This document shows, piece after piece, positions 12,372-58,042 of a stretch of 64,000 nt of DNA (positions within the stretch are counted from its first letter, which is position 1; each line of letters starts with the position of its first letter). A model generated the notes under the pieces. That model saw only the letters and a program-made list of their open reading frames with translations. It ran no database searches and was not told where the DNA came from. Source of the DNA: Terriglobia bacterium (GTDB taxonomy: Bacteria; Acidobacteriota; Terriglobia; Versatilivoradales; Versatilivoraceae); assembly GCA_963665655.1 (NCBI GenBank), contig OY762429.1:112492-176491 (forward strand). The letters are read 5' to 3'. Position numbers and translations under genes: made by a program.

Positions 12372-12492
12372 GGTTGATTTGTCGATTTTGGATTGTGGGT
12401 TGGATTTTGGACTTGCGCACGGTCAGTGGTCAGTTGTCGTGACTGGTGTCCTGTAACAGAATCCACAATCTGCAATCAAATTCTGGATTCTT
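12372..12492 (+). repeat. Family D degenerate repeat immediately 5' of MITE A1 (approximate bounds)
   Basis: TTGATTTGTCGATTTTGGATTGTGGGTTGGATTTTGG...GGTCAGTGGTCAG...CCACAATCTGCAATCAAATTCTGGATTC. Similar to 31195-31300 and partly to 22700-22870. Confidence 0.4.
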
Positions 12493-12874
12493 GAGCCTTT
12501 GGCAAAATTCCGCAGACAAGGGTATTGTGGATCGGGAGAGGGGACACGGAGTGATAGGGGCAGGTTGGCTCTGTGCCTGAATGGCCACAAAAGGCACAAA
12601 AGCTGGAATCGCCAAGTCTCAAATCTCATTCAGGAATCAGGATTTCCAGAACGCGGTTCTCCGTCGAAAGGCCACAAAAGGCACAAAAACGGGATTGGGC
12701 AAGACTGGGGCCTGATTTTGTGCCTTTTGTGCTTTTTGTGGTTGAGCCGTTCACCCCATTCACTTGGCAGCGGCAGCCTTCCCAGGAGAAGCCAGGGGAG
12801 AGGTGACTCGCGGGGCAAGTCCGCTCTTCTGTTGTTTTACGGAGATGCTCGATTCCGAATTTTGCAAAAGGCTC
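12493..12874 (+). repeat. Family A MITE-like element (copy A1), ~380 bp, 18-nt terminal inverted repeats GAGCCTTTGGCAAAATTC / GAATTTTGCAAAAGGCTC
   Basis: Carries four GGCCACAAAAGGCACAAAA-type boxes in both orientations. Full copy at 57394-57769 (inverted), internal fragment at 28396-28500. No transposase ORF. Confidence 0.7.
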
Positions 12875-12924
12875 TCTTGACTGATCCGTCAATGTTGTCC
12901 CGACCCAAGAGCTCTGAAAGGCCC

Positions 12925-13344
12925 ATGGAAGCCGGATACCTGATCCTTGACCACCCCGCCGACCTGGGGATCGAAGCTCGCGGCAAGACTCTGGCGGAGG
13001 CATTTGAACAGGGTGCTTACGGACTCGCCTCAGTGATTCTCGACCCGGCTTCCGTCCGGCCGGTGGAATCCATGCCGGTCAGGATCGAGGCGGGAGACCG
13101 CCAGCAACTTCTGGTCAGGTGGTTGACCGAGGTGCTCTACCTCTACGACGGATTGAAATTCGCCCCACGACACTTCAAGATTGAGCGGTCGTCGTCCCGT
13201 TTCCTGGAGGCGCAGGTTCGAGGAGAGCCGTTCGATCCCGGGCGCCATACCGTCCGGCTGGACGTCAAGGCGATCACCTACCACCAGCTCGTGATCCGCA
13301 GGCGCGGGTCGGGCTATTGGTTGCAGGTGTTCCTCGACATCTGA
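12925..13344 (+). CDS. Archease (RtcB cofactor family), 140 aa
   Basis: MEAGYLILDHPADLGIEARGKTLAEAFEQGAYGL...RLDVKAITYHQLVI matches archease-family conserved blocks. The ORF-track N-terminal extension (from 12499) is translated MITE repeat sequence and is rejected. Confidence 0.7.
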   Translation: MEAGYLILDHPADLGIEARGKTLAEAFEQGAYGLASVILDPASVRPVESMPVRIEAGDRQQLLVRWLTEVLYLYDGLKFAPRHFKIERSSSRFLEAQVRGEPFDPGRHTVRLDVKAITYHQLVIRRRGSGYWLQVFLDI

Positions 13345-17493: not shown

Positions 17494-17749
17494 TGTCGCA
17501 CCTCCCTGTTTGGAACAAGCCTATACGACGATTGCGTTGCAATCAAGGCCGTCTCCACTGCATCCATGCCGGAACATCGCAACGCACAGGAGCATTCGGT
17601 CCAGGTCCATCAACCAGGAATCCTGTATATCCTGTTCATCCATGTTCATTATGCAGTTGAATCAGGGGTGGACCATTCGAGGGTGAAACCGGGGACATTG
17701 ATGGCGTATCGGGAGCAGGGAAACGTTCCGGTTCCCCTCACCGTCTTTC

Positions 17750-17785
17750 TTCGTGTGTCTTCGTGGTCCTTCGTGCCCCTTCGTG
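17750..17785 (+). promoter_or_regulatory. Four phased direct repeats TTCGTG-N4 (exact 10-bp period), candidate operator
   Basis: TTCGTGtgtcTTCGTGgtccTTCGTGccccTTCGTG seen at 17750, 17760, 17770, 17780. Lies ~260 nt upstream of vapB on the minus strand. Confidence 0.4.
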
Positions 17786-17842
17786 GGTAGCTCTTCCTAC
17801 CCCGTCGCATGCGGCACGAAACCGGTTGGTTTCAGTCACGGG

Positions 17843-20261: not shown

Positions 20262-20885
20262 ATGGACAAACGGGTCAGCGGCATCATCCTGGCCGCGGGC
20301 AGATCGCAGCGCATGGGGCGGCCCAAGGCCTTGCTGCCCATCTTCGGCGCCACCTTCCTGGAACATATCGTCTGCCAGATTCGGGCCTCCCGGCTGGTCG
20401 AGGTGAAGATCGTGCTGGGTCACCGGCCGGAAACCATTCTGGAACGTCTGCCGGACCTGAAGCCGGCTACCGTCATCAACTCCCGCTACCGGGAAGGACA
20501 ACTCTCCTCTCTGCAAACCGGCATCCGGGCTCTCGATCCCGAAACCTGCGACGGCTTGATGCTCTTCCTGGTCGACCATCCCCTGGTCGACCCCACCCTG
20601 ATCGACGCGCTGCTGGAATGCTTCAGCCAGGGAGGCCATCCCATCGTGATTCCTTCCTTTCAGAGGAAGCGAGGACATCCGGTCCTGTTCGCCAGGGAAC
20701 TGTTTCCCGAGCTGCTTGCCGCCAGTCCGGACGAAGGGGCCGTTGCCGTGGTCAGGCAGCATCGCCGGGAGATCCGCCACCTGGAATGGCCATCGGATGA
20801 GATCCTTGTCGACGTAGACACCCCGGAAGCCTACCAACGCTGGATCCAGCCGCGCACGACGGGTGTTCCGTCCCGGCAACGCTGA
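20262..20885 (+). CDS. MobA/MocA-like molybdenum-cofactor nucleotidyltransferase
   Basis: GIILAAGRSQRMGRPKALLP motif. Overlaps the pheA stop, so probably co-transcribed. Confidence 0.7.
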   Translation: MDKRVSGIILAAGRSQRMGRPKALLPIFGATFLEHIVCQIRASRLVEVKIVLGHRPETILERLPDLKPATVINSRYREGQLSSLQTGIRALDPETCDGLMLFLVDHPLVDPTLIDALLECFSQGGHPIVIPSFQRKRGHPVLFARELFPELLAASPDEGAVAVVRQHRREIRHLEWPSDEILVDVDTPEAYQRWIQPRTTGVPSRQR

Positions 20886-20887
20886 AG

Positions 20888-20968
20888 ATTCCAAACAAAG
20901 CACTGCAAGATGTTAAAGACCAACACTTTTCTACCCTATGCTCAGCGGCCCGGTGAGAAATGCGGGTC
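20888..20968 (+). repeat. Family C repeat (core GGTGAGAAATGCGGG with ~60-nt conserved 5' part), copy C1
   Basis: ~85% identical to 57957-58042. Core recurs at 48268-48300(rc), 50886-50912(rc), 57797-57822(rc), 59275-59305 and degenerate at 29025-29043. Confidence 0.55.
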
Positions 20969-25317: not shown

Positions 25318-25481
25318 GATGCGTTTTCCACTTCGACGGGAGATTCTCTTCGACCCCGAAGGCAATGCCGCCCGCGGGGCCGCGTGGAGCAGAGTCCACG
25401 ATCTTCAGAGAATCATAACACAGGGAAGCGAGCCCGCTTCCCGTGCCGCAGCGGCTGAAACAACAACAGAAAAGAGGAATC

Positions 25482-25498
25482 CACGAAGTCACACGAAG
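25482..25498 (-). promoter_or_regulatory. Two phased direct repeats CACGAAG (10-bp period); reverse complement matches the 17750 motif
   Basis: CACGAAGtcaCACGAAG. Its reverse complement CTTCGTGtgaCTTCGTG is near-identical to CTTCGTGtgtCTTCGTG at 17749. ~170 nt upstream of kbl. Confidence 0.35.
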
Positions 25499-25730
25499 GA
25501 CCAGAAAGGCCACCAAGGGGGACGGCTCTGCCGCATCGGCACAGGCTGAGGCCTGGCAACCGGGCGTGCGCCGGATCGAGGGGCAAGAGTGATGGAAGGA
25601 GGACCACCCGGGAGCGCGGGCGTCCCGCCCGCCCCAGTCCGGGCGCAGCCCGGGCCGACCGAGACAACCCCGCATGGAGCGGGACACGGCCAAGTGCTGC
25701 CGCCGCTTCGCGGCTCGGGGGGTGCACCCA

Positions 25731-25802
25731 GGGGACGTTGTTGAATTCCTGGAATTCAGAAACCGCTGATCCAATTTATTCCAGTAGTTCAACAACGTCC
25801 CC
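25731..25802 (+). repeat. Palindromic element E1 (GGGGACGTTGTTGAATTCCTGGAAT ... ATTCCAGTAGTTCAACAACGTCCCC)
   Basis: ~24-nt inverted arms around a 22-nt spacer. A second copy (27780-27822) in the same orientation bounds the far side of the low-GC cassette. Confidence 0.7.
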
Positions 25803-26109
25803 TACTCTTCCTCCCACCTGCCAAACTGGTACAGTCCCTGGAATCGGGCGCATGTTGTCGTGCGAAAGCAATCCTCGCTATCATGAATCGACCGTCCGAG
25901 TCGGGGGACTTGGTGATGTCGAGGATGCTTTTGCCCTGGAGGTCCATGTCGAAGATGCGTTGGACCATTGCTCGGCAGGCGGGTCGAGCCCCAGCTTGGG
26001 GCGCTTCTTCGCCCCGCTCTGGACATGGACCCGCTTGTATCCGTAGGGAGCGTAGGCCGACATCCAGAAGCCGCGGGAAGCAATCTACGGAGTCGACAGC
26101 CTTGCCATA

Positions 26110-26298
26110 GTGAACCCGGAGCTACTGGTGGAATGGGACGCGCTAACGCCGCCGGCGCGGCGAGAGCTGAACGCGGCGGTGTTCGACGCCATCGGCCTGA
26201 CCGTCGACGAGCGCGAGGCGGTGTACGCAGGAGTGACGAAGTTGATGGAGAATCGGCGGCCGCGCATAAGGGCAAGCAAGGAGGCAGAAAGATGTTAA
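26110..26298 (+). pseudogene. Remnant 3' end of a DNA methyltransferase-like gene (62 codons)
   Basis: C-terminal block LNAAVFDAIGLTVDEREAVYAGV resembles the ...V.DLYGLT.EE...V motif that ends many N6-adenine MTases (type I HsdM / type IIG / PglX). Upstream region is high-GC but has no long ORF. Its stop overlaps the downstream start (ATGTTAA). Confidence 0.3.
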
Positions 26299-27617
26299 TT
26301 GCCGCACTGCGAGAAGCCCTCGAACACACGACAATTACAGCAGAAGAAAGGATGGAACCTGCGGAAGCAAAGGTCCTACGAAGACAACTAGGAATGGGCA
26401 CAGACCTGACACCAGCAAACTATCGTCGCATATTGGATCTTGAGGAATACCTACCAAATTTCTCAGTCGACATCATTGCGTGGTACAGAATAAACACGCA
26501 GGAGCCGCAAATGGCAAAACTGTCGTCCGAGATCGCCAAACTCCTTGGGATCAAGGAAGGACAGCATATTTTCTCGTGCACATGCGTGCTAATGGGTGGG
26601 CAACCCGCAATAGACGCCACGCACGTAGCAGAAAAAATGATACTGGCAGCCATCAAGTTTGGACCGGAAAAGGCGGAAGCTCTCCTCAACTCAAGAATGT
26701 CAGACCAAACCGTTTCGGTTAATCATTTGCTTCTGGCAGAAGGAGTTACGGTAGCGGAAGAACTCAAAATCGGAAACGACATAAAGATTGTCCCCATCAG
26801 CGAGAAAAACAAGTACATTCTGCCGTTCGACATCCGACATCAATACATCAACCGCCATCGATTTGTTCCGTTCCATAGCAATCTCGAACAATCGGCCATC
26901 ATCATCACTGAGCATTCTCTGACGCCTGCGTTCAAAGTAGTGGAAGAAGGCTACGAAGAAAGCGAGCCGTGGCCTATGGGTGTAATACACACAATCGAAG
27001 AAGATGACGTGAACGCTCCAGAAAGGGCAACGACATCCATTTTGTCGCTTGTCATCAACTCACCCGTGATCGCTATGCGGTCATGGATTTACACCGACCC
27101 TTACGAACCTTTCCGCATAGACAGGGGAAGCCGCGCAGCGGCAAGTTTCCTAGGTGGAAGGCGTGCATATCAATCAGTACAAGCTGGCTTGGATGACCTT
27201 GCGAAATTCCAAGAAATACGAGAAAAACTGCTGTCTGAACCGAACATAGAGAAGAAGCTGAAAACCCCTATCAGATACTGGGTCAAATCCAGAATGGCAG
27301 GCCCTAGCGTTGACGGGGCGATCTACCTCGGCATAGCAATGGAGACCCTTTTCCTCGACAATTCCAGGACGGAGCTGTCATATCGCATGCAAGTTAGAGC
27401 CGCCAAGCTAATAGGCGGGAACATGTCGCAACGCGAGCTAACGAAGAAGCTAGTGAAGAACACATACTCGGTTCGCTCCAGAGCGGCGCATGAAGGCGCA
27501 ATGAAAACCGAGGATCAAGAAGCTATAGAGAAGGGACAAGGTCTGATACGCGATGCTATTCTGAAAATAATCGAGTCGGGTACATACCCCGACTGGAACC
27601 GCTTGGATCTGGAGTGA
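26292..27617 (+). CDS. Uncharacterised 441-aa protein with C-terminal HEPN-like R-x4-H motif; candidate abortive-infection/defence protein (AIPR/Abi-like context)
   Basis: AAGGAGG SD 7 nt before ATG 26292. GC ~48% versus ~65% in flanks. RSRAAHEG motif at 27472-27495 in a predicted all-helical C-terminal region. No Walker A, no PD-(D/E)xK recognised. Confidence 0.7.
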   Translation: MLIAALREALEHTTITAEERMEPAEAKVLRRQLGMGTDLTPANYRRILDLEEYLPNFSVDIIAWYRINTQEPQMAKLSSEIAKLLGIKEGQHIFSCTCVLMGGQPAIDATHVAEKMILAAIKFGPEKAEALLNSRMSDQTVSVNHLLLAEGVTVAEELKIGNDIKIVPISEKNKYILPFDIRHQYINRHRFVPFHSNLEQSAIIITEHSLTPAFKVVEEGYEESEPWPMGVIHTIEEDDVNAPERATTSILSLVINSPVIAMRSWIYTDPYEPFRIDRGSRAAASFLGGRRAYQSVQAGLDDLAKFQEIREKLLSEPNIEKKLKTPIRYWVKSRMAGPSVDGAIYLGIAMETLFLDNSRTELSYRMQVRAAKLIGGNMSQRELTKKLVKNTYSVRSRAAHEGAMKTEDQEAIEKGQGLIRDAILKIIESGTYPDWNRLDLE

Positions 27618-27779
27618 ACTATCCATGACCATCCTCCATACCTACAGCGACCTCAAGTTCACCAAACGCCTGCGCCACGTCCTGGTCTAGGCCCACGGCG
27701 CCCCTCACGGGCCTTACGGCAAGCCTGTCGGGACTGAGCGGAAACACCAACTACACCTACAAGGCGTATTCGGACACCA

Positions 27780-27822
27780 GGGGACGTTGTTGAATTACTG
27801 GAATAACTTGTGCAACGTCCCC
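27780..27822 (+). repeat. Palindromic element E2 (shorter copy of E1)
   Basis: GGGGACGTTGTTGAATTACTGGAATAACTTGTGCAACGTCCCC. First 26 nt nearly identical to E1. Confidence 0.6.
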
Positions 27823-28238
27823 ATTTCCAGTCAGTCAGAAAATCCTATCCTCTGGCAGCGTCGTGATTTCAGGGAGAGCGGCGTAGCCGCGCCAGCACTT
27901 GGCCCCGGGCGTAAGCCCGGGGTCGTATGGGTCCTGCACTGCCCTAGCCGCGTAGGCGGCTACTCGAGAGCCGGGTCTCCAAAACACACGGCCTCCCCAA
28001 AAACCATCGGTTCCCCGGCACCGTTGCCGTTCGATCCAAGTGATGGAGATGGTCAGGCTGTGCCGGTCTATGGTGCGGGCGGGACGCCCGCGCTCCCGGG
28101 TGGCTTCATCCCATGACCGGGCCACGCCAAGGGGACGAAATTGCAGGAGCATTCCGGGGCCGGCTTTTGTTGACGGAGTGTTGGGCATAGCGGGCGTAGG
28201 AGACGGGGCAGATCAATCGAGAAGGACCAACAACTGAA

Positions 28239-28379
28239 CATCGATGCACAGGATAACCAGGACGGGACGCTCCTGCACGAGAAGTTGACTTCGGCGATGA
28301 TCCGGTTCGGGATTGCGGATGCCCAGGAACAGAGGCCAGTCGTTTCCAGAAAAAATCCTGTGCATCCTGTGCATCGATG
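28239..28379 (+). repeat. Family B palindromic MITE-like element, copy B1 (TIR CATCGATGCACAGGAT)
   Basis: Starts CATCGATGCACAGGATAACCAGGACGGGACGCT..., ends ...ATCCTGTGCATCCTGTGCATCGATG. ~85% identical to 50956-51105. Confidence 0.65.
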
Positions 28380-28395
28380 TGAATAAAAATCGAAA

Positions 28396-28500
28396 AGGCC
28401 ACAAGAGGCACAAGAACGGGATTGGACAAGACTGGAGCCTTTTTTGTGCTTTTTGTGCCTTTTGTGGTTGAGTCGTTTGCCCATTCTCCAGGCAGCAGGA
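28396..28500 (+). repeat. Family A MITE, internal fragment (copy A2) abutting B1
   Basis: GGCCACAAGAGGCACAAGAACGGGATTGG...TTTTGTGCTTTTTGTGCCTTTTGTGGTTGAG matches the middle of 12493-12874. Confidence 0.5.
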
Positions 28501-48196: not shown

Positions 48197-48549
48197 TGGG
48201 GACCGCCGGCCATTGATTTCATTCTCATCGGCATGCCTGCCAGGTTCCTTTACCCGCCACCATGCCCATTTTAGCCGCATTTCTCACCAGCTCGCCGGTG
48301 GCATGATGAAAACCTGTTGATCCGCGACGGGGAACCGAGGAGCACCCAACCGACCCGCAGATTCGCGTGGCTTATTTTAAAGTTTACATAATATACCTTA
48401 TCGGAAGTCGAGTTCGGACCGCTGGGATCGCCCCTGCTTCCGGACGCCTGTCTCTCGGCCGCGGCAAATTGGTTGCAACCGTTCCACTGGGACTCGATAT
48501 ATAATGGCCACCCGGTCGGGATTCATTGGAACATGGAGACAGCCAAAGC

Positions 48550-50885: not shown

Positions 50886-50955
50886 GATGCTTGACCCGCA
50901 TTTCTCGCCAGAATGTCATTCCCGATTGCGAATTTTGCAAAAGGCTCACAATAAA

Positions 50956-51105
50956 CATGGATGGACAGGATGCACAGGATAACCAGGACGGGACGCTGCT
51001 GCACGAGAAGCCGGCTCCGGCAATGATCGTGTGCGGACCTGCGGATGCTCAGGATTACAAGCTGGCCGTTTCAAGAAAAAATCCTGTGCATCCTGTGCAT
51101 CCATG
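50956..51105 (+). repeat. Family B palindromic MITE-like element, copy B2
   Basis: CATGGATGGACAGGATGCACAGGATAACCAGGACGGGACGCTGCTGCACGAGAAG...ATCCTGTGCATCCTGTGCATCCATG. Flanked on both sides by solo family-A TIRs (50918-50943, 51148-51166). Confidence 0.65.
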
Positions 51106-51204
51106 TGAATCAAAACCTGTTCCGAGCGTCCATAAAACCGTTGGCTTTGGAATTTTGCAAAAGGCTCACTGTGATAGCCTATTCAACCGATCGCTGTATG
51201 AGGG

Positions 51205-54783: not shown

Positions 54784-57378
54784 ATGGCGCACACTCCACT
54801 GCTGTTGCCGACGGCAGCATTCTGTCTCGGTCTTGCCGCTCATTCCCGGGTCGCCAACTCGGCGGAATCCCTATGGGCCGCCGGCGCTCTCACGCTGTGC
54901 CTCTCATGGATTCTCTGGAGCAGGAAAAGAGCCTGGAGTTGCTGGATCGTCGTGCTCCTGGCTTTTGGCTTGTCCGGAATGGGCTGGAAAGCCATCCACG
55001 AACTCCAGTTCGGCGGCAACCACCTTCGGACTTTGGTCCGATCCGACGCACTGGACCTGACGGCTCCCTGTCGGGTGAGGGGGCGGTGCGTCCGTGTCTC
55101 GGACGGAAAGTCCGGGGGTATCCACCTGGAAGTGGAAGTTCAACACCTGGCAAACCGGTTCGACAGCTTTGAGACCCGGGGAAAGATTCGCCTTCACCTC
55201 TTCCCCCCGGACGTTTCCTTCAACACCTGGCCACCCGCACAGGCCGGCGATCAGGTCGAGATCCTCGCCTACCTGCGAAGACCGGAGAATTTCAACAATC
55301 CGGGACAGTTCGACTATCGGTCCTACCTGGAGCTGCGCGGCATCTTTCTGACCGGCAACCTGAAGGATCCACTCCTGCTGACCCGTCGCCCGCGGCAAAC
55401 GGAATTCTCCTGGCAGGACCTTGCCCACCAAATGCGGCAAGGCTGTATTCGCGCACTGGATGCCCTCCCCGCATCCGAGCCGGCCAGGGCCGTTCTGAAA
55501 GCCGTACTGCTCGGAGATGACAGTGACCTTGCGGAGGAAACCAGGTCCCGTTTTCGATTGAACGGCCTCTATCACGTGCTGGTCGTCTCGGGACTGCATG
55601 TGGGAATGATGATTGCCATGGTCTTTGCCCTGCTCAAGCAAATGAGGCTTCCGCGCTGGTTGGCCCTGACCTTGACCATGGGGTCGATCGTCCTTTACAA
55701 CCTCCTGGCCGAGGGACAGGTCGCCATTGACCGGGCTTCGATCATGGGTTGCCTGTTTCTGACCAGTCTCTATTTCGACCGGGACCGCAACCTGCTCCAC
55801 TCCCTTTGCCTGGCGGCCTGGTGGGTCCTGCTCAAAGATCCCGGATGGTTGGACGACTCGGGGTTCCAACTCTCATTCTCGGCCGCCCTGGCGATCGCCG
55901 TGGTGGGACTTCCCCTGCTGCGCCGCACCACTCAACCCTGCAAGGAAGCTCTCCGGTCTTTGGAATCCATCCATCTGGATCGCAACTTTTCCCCTCGACT
56001 GGCCGCCTGGCGGGTCGCCTTGAGACTCCGCGGCTCGAGGCTGGCGGAGTCCTTGGGCATTCCGCGATCGACCGTCCTCCTCGGTCTGATGGTCTGGCCC
56101 TACAGGCTCCTCCTGGGACTTCTGGACATTGTCCTGGTTTCCGTTGCCATTCAGGCCGTGCTCCTGGTTCCCCTGATGGTCTATTTTCACCGGGTGGTGC
56201 TGCCGGTCATTTTCCTCAATATGCTGGTCATTCCCCTGGTCGGCATGATCATTCCGGTTGGATTTTCCTATCTGGCCTGGGCCAGTCTATTCCCGCAGGC
56301 CTCCTGGGCGCTCGGTTGGGTCTGCGGACTGCTGGCCGAATGCCTGCTGAGCCTCAACCGCACCTTTTCCGAAATCCCCTGGCTCGGATTTTCCCTGCCC
56401 CAGGTTCCCCTGGGCTGGGTGCTGGCCTATTACGGCTCCCTGGCCCTGTGGGTGGCCGTTGGAGTTCCCCGACTCCTGAGGCTGTTGGGCGGCTCCATCT
56501 GGATCGCTTCCCTGGCGGTCCTGCTGGCGGGGGCGCCGGGAGCCAAATCGGGATCGCGCGAGTTGGACCTGGCTTTTCTGGATGTGCGGCAGGGAGACTG
56601 CCTCCTGGTAAGCTGGCCGAACGACAGGCACCTTCTGGTCGACGCCGGTGGCAGTTGGTCCGGGACCGGCCACCGATCCGAAATCGGGGCGACGGCTTTT
56701 GATGTTGGAGAGCAGGTGGTTGCGCCCTATCTCTGGAGCCGGGGTGTCCGATCGTTGGAAGCGGTGGTCCTGACCCACGCTCACCAGGATCATATGGGGG
56801 GGCTGGACTTCATTCTGGACAACTTCGAGGTCAAGGAGTTCTGGCTCGGAGACAGCATTGTTGTGCCCGATTTGCGTGATCTGCTCCAGAAAGCGTCGGC
56901 CCGCGGCCTCGATATCAGAGTATTCCAGGCCGGGGACACCCTCAATCTTCATGGCTCCGGATTGGAATTCCTCAACCCCGGCTGCGGTCCTGCCGACGAA
57001 AATATCAACAACGACTCCCTTGTTCTGAGAATGACCTATGGCCGGCGGTCTTTTCTGTTGACCGGTGATATCGAGGAGCCTGCGGAGGAATGCCTCGCAG
57101 CGCTTGGACCCCGCCTCCAATCGGACGTCTTGAAGGTGGCCCACCACGGCAGCGGGACCTCGACCTCTTCACGCTTTTTGAATCAAGTGAATCCGGTGGT
57201 TGCCGTAATTTCGGCCGGCAAGGTCAACCCGTTTGGCCATCCTCACCCTGAAGTGGTCAGGCGTTTGCAGACCTTCCCCTTGCAGCTTCTCCGCACCGAC
57301 CGACAGGGGGCCGTCACCGTCAGCACCGACGGATACTACCTGCGCACGGCCACCTACCTGAAGGAGGCGGGACAGTAG
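54784..57378 (+). CDS. comEC: ComEC/Rec2 DNA-internalisation competence protein (DUF4131 + competence + metallo-beta-lactamase domains)
   Basis: Polytopic membrane region. C-terminal HAHQDH metallo-beta-lactamase motif (VVLTHAHQDHMGG). Confidence 0.85.
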   Translation: MAHTPLLLPTAAFCLGLAAHSRVANSAESLWAAGALTLCLSWILWSRKRAWSCWIVVLLAFGLSGMGWKAIHELQFGGNHLRTLVRSDALDLTAPCRVRGRCVRVSDGKSGGIHLEVEVQHLANRFDSFETRGKIRLHLFPPDVSFNTWPPAQAGDQVEILAYLRRPENFNNPGQFDYRSYLELRGIFLTGNLKDPLLLTRRPRQTEFSWQDLAHQMRQGCIRALDALPASEPARAVLKAVLLGDDSDLAEETRSRFRLNGLYHVLVVSGLHVGMMIAMVFALLKQMRLPRWLALTLTMGSIVLYNLLAEGQVAIDRASIMGCLFLTSLYFDRDRNLLHSLCLAAWWVLLKDPGWLDDSGFQLSFSAALAIAVVGLPLLRRTTQPCKEALRSLESIHLDRNFSPRLAAWRVALRLRGSRLAESLGIPRSTVLLGLMVWPYRLLLGLLDIVLVSVAIQAVLLVPLMVYFHRVVLPVIFLNMLVIPLVGMIIPVGFSYLAWASLFPQASWALGWVCGLLAECLLSLNRTFSEIPWLGFSLPQVPLGWVLAYYGSLALWVAVGVPRLLRLLGGSIWIASLAVLLAGAPGAKSGSRELDLAFLDVRQGDCLLVSWPNDRHLLVDAGGSWSGTGHRSEIGATAFDVGEQVVAPYLWSRGVRSLEAVVLTHAHQDHMGGLDFILDNFEVKEFWLGDSIVVPDLRDLLQKASARGLDIRVFQAGDTLNLHGSGLEFLNPGCGPADENINNDSLVLRMTYGRRSFLLTGDIEEPAEECLAALGPRLQSDVLKVAHHGSGTSTSSRFLNQVNPVVAVISAGKVNPFGHPHPEVVRRLQTFPLQLLRTDRQGAVTVSTDGYYLRTATYLKEAGQ

Positions 57379-57393
57379 AAAACTCTTTTGGGG

Positions 57394-57769
57394 GAGCCTT
57401 TTGCAAAATTCGGAATCGAGCATCTCCATAAAACAACAGAAGAGCGGACTTGCCTCGCGAGTCACCTCTCCCCCGGCTCCTCCTGGGAAGGCTGCCAGGT
57501 GAATGGGGTGAACGGCTCAACCACAAAAAGCACAAAAGGCACAAAATCAGGCCCCAGTCTTACCCAATCCCGTTTTTGTGCCTCTTGTGGCCGTTCGAAG
57601 GAGAACCGCGTTCTGGAAATCCTGATTCCTGAATGAGATTGGAGACCTGGCGATTCCAGCTATTGTGCCTCTTGTGGCCACTCAGGCACAGAGCGGCCCT
57701 GCCCCTGGAATTTCCTGTCCCCTCTCCCGATCCACTAAACCCTTGTCTGCGGAATTTTGCAAAAGGCTC
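57394..57769 (-). repeat. Family A MITE (copy A3, inverted relative to A1), TIR GAGCCTTTTGCAAAATTC
   Basis: ~90% identical to the reverse complement of 12493-12874, including the internal GGCCACAAAAGGCACAAAA boxes. Confidence 0.7.
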
Positions 57770-57956
57770 GGGGGATTGGTCCGAAACGTTTCCCGCCAGC
57801 CCGCATTTCTCACCAGGGGGCGTGATCATGGCGCGGGAATTTTCCCCTCAGCGCGTGCTCGGGAGCGAAGAGCGTCGCGGTCACTACGGTCGAGCGAGCA
57901 TGGATGGGCTGAGGGGAAAAGGACAAGCCAGGGCACGCCCAGCACGGTCTGTACGC

Positions 57957-58042
57957 TGAAGACTCCAAACAAAGCGCTGCAAGATGTTAAAGACAAACAC
58001 TTTTCTACCATAGGCTCAGCGGCCTGGTGAGAAATGCGGGCT
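57957..58042 (+). repeat. Family C repeat, copy C2
   Basis: CCAAACAAAGCGCTGCAAGATGTTAAAGACAAACACTTTTCTACCATAGGCTCAGCGGCCTGGTGAGAAATGCGGGCT. ~85% identical to 20888-20968. Confidence 0.55.

Follow-up and report, generated by a model that had tools for sequence, protein, structure and literature searches.

How did a 382-bp repeat come to lie between a gene for a 1270-aa Laminin_G_3 protein and the archease gene of an uncultured soil acidobacterium? In the 64-kb stretch of DNA analysed here (the window), the original prediction had described two full copies of about 380 bp, inverted relative to each other, bounded by terminal inverted repeats (TIRs) of 18 nt and without an ORF, and had assigned them to a non-autonomous transposon family, here called family A. 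The window repeat is indeed a real small non-coding transposon (MITE), and the questions to be answered are where it came from, what moves it, and what it carries.

Two full copies and their insertion history

Allowing up to 3 mismatches, the 18-mer GAGCCTTTTGCAAAATTC has 6 sites in the window, against 0.04 expected from shuffled sequences (Table 1). It bounds two elements of 382 bp (copy 1) and 376 bp (copy 2), with 0-1 mismatches at both ends of both copies. By repeat search the copies are 92-96% complementary, in inverted orientation, and in a global alignment they are 94.4% identical over ungapped columns, with 12 gap columns. The divergence of about 6% implies that neither copy is of very recent date, and no frame stays open through both of them. 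The predicted sizes, orientation, terminal repeats and lack of an ORF are therefore all confirmed.

Table 1. Family A features in the window and the evidence on which each was placed
Feature	Position	Strand	Evidence or remark
GAGCCTTTTGCAAAATTC sites in the 64-kb window	12493 (+, 1 mismatch), 12857 (-), 57394 (+), 57752 (-), 50930 (-), 51150 (-)		
MITE copy 1, 382 bp	12493-12874	+	TIRs, repeat search, alignment
MITE copy 2, 376 bp, inverted	57394-57769	-	TIRs, TSD, repeat search
Copy 1 left TIR, GAGCCTTTGGCAAAATTC	12493-12510	+	1 mismatch to consensus
Copy 1 right TIR	12857-12874	-	exact match to consensus
Copy 1 left TSD, TCTT	12489-12492	.	sequence reading; single TCTT in L108
Copy 1 right TSD, TCTT	12875-12878	.	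sequence reading, TSD test
Copy 2 TSD, GGGG (CCCC on the other strand)	57390-57393 and 57770-57773		
Box hairpin of copy 1, tandem 9-mer arms GGCCACAAAAGGCACAAAAA ... TTTTGTGCCTTTTGTGCTTTTTGTGG	12670-12741	+	box scan, folding
Extra unpaired left-arm box, GGCCACAAAAGGCACAAAA	12583-12601	+	repeat search (family D5), box scan
Truncated composite MITE (earlier 'solo TIRs')	50912-51167	-	alignment to L097 and L100
Composite outer left end, 62 nt	51106-51167		
Nested hairpin element D1, 150 bp	50956-51105		
Composite inner TIR plus 18 nt	50912-50947		
MITE-interior relic without TIRs: box hairpin plus ~33 nt	28394-28500	+	repeat search, box scan

Copy 1 begins 189 bp past the stop of the Laminin_G_3 gene and lies 50 bp upstream of the archease ATG at 12925, and copy 2 starts 15 bp beyond the stop codon of ComEC (54784-57378). 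Both neighbours had been named correctly; archease is identified by Pfam with E = 6.7e-39. It had also been suspected that the apparent N-terminal extension of archease is false, and this proved right: the 281-aa ORF from TTG 12499 is archease preceded by a spurious extension of 142 codons translated from copy 1, close archease orthologues all have 139 aa, and the real start is ATG 12925. A third MITE-like family, with inverted ends CCCGCATTTCTCACCAG, has a 242-bp copy at 57799-58040, 29 bp from copy 2. An 88-nt piece of it, 93% identical, is found at 20879-20966, and solo ends adjoin gene ends at 48275-48291 and 50895-50911.

In a metagenomic contig of a close relative (L108; archease 94% identical), the flanks of copy 1 are joined with a single TCTT. 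The junction, ...CAGGATTCTT/GACTGATCCGTCAATG..., equals the window flanks with one copy of the duplicated tetramer, and the longer uninterrupted run reads ...AATCTGCAATCGAATTCAGGATTCTT/GACTGATCCGTCAATGTTGTCCC... The site of copy 1 is thus exactly empty in L108. Excision of a DDE element would normally leave both copies of the target-site duplication (TSD), and the L108 state is most simply taken as ancestral; the insertion of copy 1 postdates the split from the L108 lineage. In distant orthologues the Laminin_G_3 gene and archease are separated by 53-54 bp only. In the nearest genome examined (ctg522443c), which has the same gene order and an aldo/keto reductase (AKR) gene 95% identical to that of the window, both insertion sites are empty. 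No empty site of copy 2 was found in syntenic relatives, because their ComEC spacer is unalignable: the distance from ComEC to the next gene is 103-104 bp in these relatives versus 674 bp in the window, and only the last ~40 nt can be aligned. Metagenome scans with the predicted empty site of copy 2 and with the 25-nt MITE-specific right end gave no match.

Could local or segmental duplication, or recombination of intergenic sequence, have produced the copies instead of transposition? The window holds just two full copies, and the rearranged fragments at 28.4 kb and 50.9 kb, described below, indicate that recombination and deletion act on these sequences. Such an origin is nevertheless barely credible, given that the boundaries are sharp at the TIRs, that the 4-bp TSD differs between the copies and their flanks are unrelated, that the L108 site is precisely empty, and that dozens of TSD-flanked relatives sit at unrelated sites in other genomes.

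A dispersed family and its IS1182-type partner

When 185,579 species genomes were scanned for exact matches to the 18-mer, at least 105 loci were returned; the majority of the matches listed belong to Terriglobia, Bryobacterales and Ca. Versatilivorator MAGs. Simple arithmetic gives a chance expectation of about 17 exact matches in 596 Gb (both strands), and singleton matches in unrelated phyla were interpreted only where a relative of the insertion sequence (IS) described below was adjacent. The family is thus represented by two full and two partial copies in the window and by at least 105 TIR-bearing loci in related genomes. A scan of viral contigs gave one match, in a coding region and without a partner repeat, which was taken as chance.

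The family-wide set comprised the elements in 105 loci and the window that are bounded by the 18-mer repeat with up to 3 mismatches. An exact 4-bp TSD flanks 34 of these 59 elements (69-1563 bp), compared with 0-2 of 59 at shifted positions; the remaining 25 include elements with a duplication of 5 bp, nested ones and others that have probably undergone rearrangement. A wider pairing of repeats in the loci yielded 35 TSD-flanked pairs spanning 75-1558 bp. Since 32 different tetramers occur among these 35, there is no target consensus.

At five loci (L007, L027, L037, L099 and L102), identical TIRs lie 1487 bp apart and enclose one ORF of 391 aa. These five IS copies are mutually 98.9-100% identical, and four of them have TSDs (TTGG, TTAT, GTAT and ATGT). 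A further copy of 1485 bp, with the TSD TATC, is present in ctg522443c (locus L119). The cognate transposase with matching TIRs that the original prediction had envisaged is therefore found in the 1485-1487-bp ISs of sister genomes; the 64-kb window itself contains no relative of it (tblastn with the partner transposase). The only one of the five near-identical copies without a TSD is at L037 4444-5930, and its mismatched flanks (ATTC vs AGTA) show the pattern expected from recombination between two IS copies.

The 391-aa transposase has the Pfam domains DDE_Tnp_1 (1.8e-18) and DUF772 (1.3e-9). The top NCBIfam IS model is IS1182 (NF033551) with 117.3 bits, below its cut-off of 270, and for no IS family does the protein reach the curated NCBIfam cut-off. 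In a tblastn search against plasmids, transposases named IS1182-family by PGAP are 44-54% identical to it, and the ISUnCu17 transposase is 47% identical over the full length (E = 9e-115). Its SRDSTAI, LMDSAYD and YRERSTVERVNGRLK have aligned counterparts in ISUnCu17 (SRD, MDxAY and Y-2-R-3-E-6-K conserved); by analogy with IS4/IS5-type enzymes, we take them to hold the catalytic D, D and YREK residues. The ISUnCu17 copy on the Aeromonas caviae plasmid NZ_AP026405.1 (L106 404-1886) is 1483 bp long, has the TSD ATGA on both sides, and ends in GAGCCTCTTGCAAAA and TTTTGCAAGAAGCTC. Like ISUnCu17, the acidobacterial IS has the TIR core GAGCCTnTTGCAAAA, a similar length (1485-1487 vs 1483 bp), a 4-bp TSD and a single transposase gene, although its TIR is longer (18-19 nt, ...AAAATTC). 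Because of this homology and the same TIR core, length and TSD, the partner is of the IS1182 type and not of the IS630/Tc1 type, and the acidobacterial IS is an ISUnCu17-like member of the IS1182 family.

Two kinds of partner had been suggested before, and they fared differently. An IS630/Tc1-mariner partner is rejected, as the duplicated target is not TA but 4 bp without any consensus; moreover, the transposase is of the DDE_Tnp_1/DUF772 type. The other suggestion, an IS5-like partner, came near, as the partner transposase is related to IS5-type DDE enzymes but closer to IS1182. Assignment to the IS5 family itself was also rejected, since three IS5 models all score below their NCBIfam cut-offs: IS5_4 with 70.9 bits (cut-off 140), IS5_3 with 48.6 (110) and IS5_2 with 47.8 (140).

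Environmental assemblies contain a very large number of relatives of this transposase (7,974 proteins at E <= 1e-60). Many of them are on contigs of 1.45-1.55 kb comprising nothing but the IS, as is usual for multi-copy repeats at which assemblies break. On the 4,912,566-bp contig holding an AKR 100% identical to that of the window, none of the best 120 of the 7,974 relatives is listed.

Comparison of the MITE with this IS provides the link between them. The left ~30 nt of copy 1 align with the left end of the IS and the right ~29 nt with its right end, so that the two have in common the 18-19-nt TIR and ~10-12 subterminal nt on each side. The MITE interior has no similarity to the IS, and the term 'deletion derivative' is therefore true of the ends only. 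The MITE is a non-coding derivative that has retained just the ends of a ~1.49-kb ISUnCu17-like IS, and it would be moved in trans by the single DDE transposase of this partner. The transposase, with its N-terminal DUF772 domain and a DDE_Tnp_1 domain with Y-2-R-3-E-6-K, would bind the terminal repeats and insert the element at a target cleaved with a stagger of 4 bp, the repair of which would produce the 4-bp duplication. This chemistry is borrowed from what is known of DDE enzymes, and the partner transposase is the presumed mover of the window copies. The prediction of a non-autonomous TIR transposon family is upheld by the 4-bp TSDs at both window copies and most relatives, the partner transposase, the further copies and the empty site of copy 1. 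Family A is very probably a MITE family mobilised, presumably in trans, by an ISUnCu17-like transposase of the IS1182 family.

Several known systems are comparable. ISUnCu17 itself differs from the window element in being autonomous and in belonging to Proteobacteria, whereas the window MITE is gene-less and retains ~30 nt per IS end. The IS1182-family member ISPse1 of Paracoccus seriniphilus, which was captured in a trap plasmid, is 1653 bp long with 16-bp inverted repeats and a 4-bp duplication (PMC3281130). Since it is functional, a 4-bp stagger is real in active IS1182 members (PMC3281130). ISPse1, compared here by description only, shares the 4-bp duplication with the window element but is autonomous and 1653 bp long. 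According to ISfinder, as quoted in PMC7335449, direct repeats of the IS1182 family range from 2 to 60 bp, and the partner IS, with a TIR of 18-19 nt and a TSD of 4 bp, is within the range of the family. In the archaeon Methanosarcina acetivorans, MITEs of 160-169 bp with inverted repeats are tabulated with ISMac2 (IS1182 family) as their putative partner, and one of the two ISMac2-linked MITE families is listed with a 4-bp direct repeat (PMC3852290). As far as they are described there, these MITEs are, like family A, short and non-coding, with inverted repeats from an IS1182-family IS; unlike it, they have an archaeal host and different ends, and their tabulated entry gives no internal 9-mer hairpin or passengers. 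In the literature searched we found nothing on ISUnCu17 or Versatilivorator, and two MITE surveys make no mention of family A.

The interior hairpin, passengers and rearranged copies

The interior of the MITE carries a box motif, TTTTGTGCCTTTTGTGG, with 11 sites in the window versus 0.09 expected (up to 3 mismatches). Each full copy has four boxes in both orientations, exactly as predicted, and three more are at 28399-28467. Facing boxes form a hairpin, CCACAAAAGGCACAAAA...TTTTGTGCCTTTTGTGG, in which each arm has 2-4 tandem 9-mers and the loop measures from 4 to >100 nt; its arms begin with CCACAAAA, and it occurs 35 times in the window and the sequences examined. Single-stranded box hairpins fold well (z = -3.6 to -4.8), that of copy 1 with a DNA folding energy of -19.1 kcal/mol (z = -4.0). 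The extra unpaired box of copy 1 belongs to an 87-bp partial tandem duplication absent from a 280-bp relative in L089.

Of the interior modules, only the box hairpin is conserved throughout the MITE family, and it is absent from the partner IS. In 27 distinct copies, the outer 17 bp of each arm hardly vary, mismatches occur regularly at the 9-mer boundaries, and there are no compensatory changes. No hairpin-less counterpart of the box-bearing MITE was found in the sequences examined. Independent mobility of the hairpin was rejected on these last two grounds, and for the same reasons the hairpin is treated as an integral part of the MITE. On a contig binned as Ca. Latescibacterota (L053, 911-1003), a family A end is accompanied by a 48-nt box hairpin identical to that of Ca. 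Versatilivorator; either the MITE has spread horizontally or the contig is mis-binned.

Other members of the family have a GC-rich hairpin (L012 and L027) or a GGGGACGTTGTTGAAT hairpin (L039 and L072) as cargo. The element in L012 is a 164-bp MITE of the L005 type plus a 138-bp GC hairpin element, which means that at least the GC-rich cargo is nested. Small hairpin elements nested in other family members indicate that the family also carries passengers.

One such passenger is found in the window. The original prediction had listed two solo TIRs near 51 kb. The repeats exist, but both belong to a single truncated composite MITE, as its outer and its inner end, with the exact 18-mers at 50930-50947 and 51150-51167 on the same strand, in direct orientation. 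When reverse-complemented, 50912-51167 is ~92% collinear with L097 78-333. Between the outer left end and the inner TIR are the hairpin element D1 and an 8-nt spacer, TTTATTRT. Since L100 has the same composite without D1, the latter is a nested insertion. The whole composites in L097 and L100 have 4-bp TSDs at their outer repeats (CTAG and AGGG), so the composite moves as one unit. The window composite ends after the inner repeat, where it abuts a solo end of another repeat family, and the rest is lost. In the syntenic loci L113 and L115 no element is present here (98-141 bp), and homology resumes exactly at 51168.

The internal fragment predicted at 28.4 kb exists as well, with its three box sites. 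Instead of a simple fragment, it is a piece of MITE interior without TIRs, to which another D1 copy (28239-28379) and 11 nt from the left arm of the composite are fused. Its hairpin still folds well (z = -3.6); we read it as a rearranged, immobile relic. D1 is a hairpin element of 140-150 bp whose ends are tandem 9-mers, CATGGATGCACAGGATGCACAGGAT; besides the copies at 28239-28379 and 50956-51105 there are solo arms at 2892-2932 and 17620-17640.

A 2.5-kb stretch (25604-28103) is bounded by a 33-nt inverted repeat, CCACCCGGGAGCGCGGGCGTCCCGCCCGCCCCA, with 97% complementarity, and has inner GGGGACGTTGTTGAATT.CTGGAAT hairpins at 25731-25803 and 27779-27824. It contains a low-GC ORF (48-50% versus 61-63% around, for ~26292-27617 within the ORF 25968-27617), which has no match in Pfam, NCBIfam or PADLOC. 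Still within the stretch, just past this ORF, is an Acido-Lenti-1 RNA (RF01687; 27877-27922, minus strand) with 46.3 bits against a gathering threshold of 37. The stretch looks like a foreign gene carried between repeat elements. Arrays of another 9-mer, CACGAAGG(N), are found at 17745-17790, 25472-25520 and L097 1-70, that is, at gene ends or beside MITEs in Versatilivorator. This suggests that small repeats of this lineage are commonly built from tandem 9-mers (CACGAAGG(N), CACAAAAGG and GCACAGGAT).

This mosaic of hairpin modules, together with several other hairpin repeat families in the window, recalls the modular make-up of BIMEs and raises the possibility of a REP/BIME-like palindromic mosaic, in which the hairpins are the active units and are spread by a RAYT (Y1, IS200/IS605-type) or by recombination. 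REP and BIME sequences are marked by short palindromic units, a GTAG or CGTC tag, an associated RAYT and no TSD; IS200/IS605-type elements generally make no target duplication. By contrast, family A has 18-nt TIRs identical to those of a DDE-type IS and 4-bp TSDs. In ~0.8 Mb of related loci every box hairpin is inside a TIR-bounded family A element, a hairpin-less counterpart was not found, and no Y1 transposase was detected in the window or the examined elements. The BIMEs and REP mosaics of enterobacteria and pseudomonads are, like family A, modular, hairpin-rich and intergenic, but as generally described (see also PMC3733652) they are linked to RAYT (Y1) and lack both a TSD and TIRs matching a DDE-type IS. 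As family A fails the REP/BIME features, the likeness is architectural only, and this explanation is most improbable.

Is the element instead kept for what it does in cis, as a terminator, promoter, small RNA or protein-binding array, with mobility being secondary? The hairpin arms are as conserved as the TIRs across genera, the element folds well (z = -4.1), and the copies are close to gene starts and ends. We nevertheless consider this very unlikely. Close relatives do without the element, their orthologous sites being empty; copies are found in either orientation, and the hairpins lack compensatory changes. The MITE has no Rfam match, whether at the gathering threshold or with E relaxed to 1. 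The original prediction had proposed that the element supplies promoters or terminators, but this finds no support from consensus scans: promoter-like and terminator-like sites in or near either copy are no commoner than in shuffled sequence. Both copies conserve a weak 5-bp stem followed by a T-rich tail (12810-12833), but it is not significant.

That the 9-mer hairpin is a selected module and not neutral filler, and lies behind the success of the MITE family, is a tentative idea that we regard as rather doubtful. The box unit GTGCCTTTT equals the TIR tip GAGCCTTTT at 8 of 9 positions. To judge from this resemblance, the hairpin might be an internal array of TIR-tip-like sites that recruits or titrates the IS1182-type transposase. 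Alternatively, it might be a host-factor or RNA hairpin that the MITE spreads next to genes. In a related reading, the family could be a shuttle for small hairpin elements (D1, the GC-rich and the GGGGACGTTGTTGAAT hairpins) within and between acidobacterial genomes.

Implications for Terriglobia genomes

With the insertion of copy 1, two genes that relatives keep 53-54 bp apart became separated by a further 386 bp of hairpin-rich DNA, which makes an effect on archease expression plausible, and natural strains with and without copy 1 exist. The repeat family breaks short-read assemblies, with many relatives on contigs of 1.2-1.6 kb, and masking family A would improve gene calls in Terriglobia MAGs. 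Its insertions are ready markers for strain typing. The understanding of how MITEs work is unchanged by family A. Its value lies in documenting, for an uncultured phylum that has been little studied, an IS1182-type IS together with MITEs that carry nested passengers.
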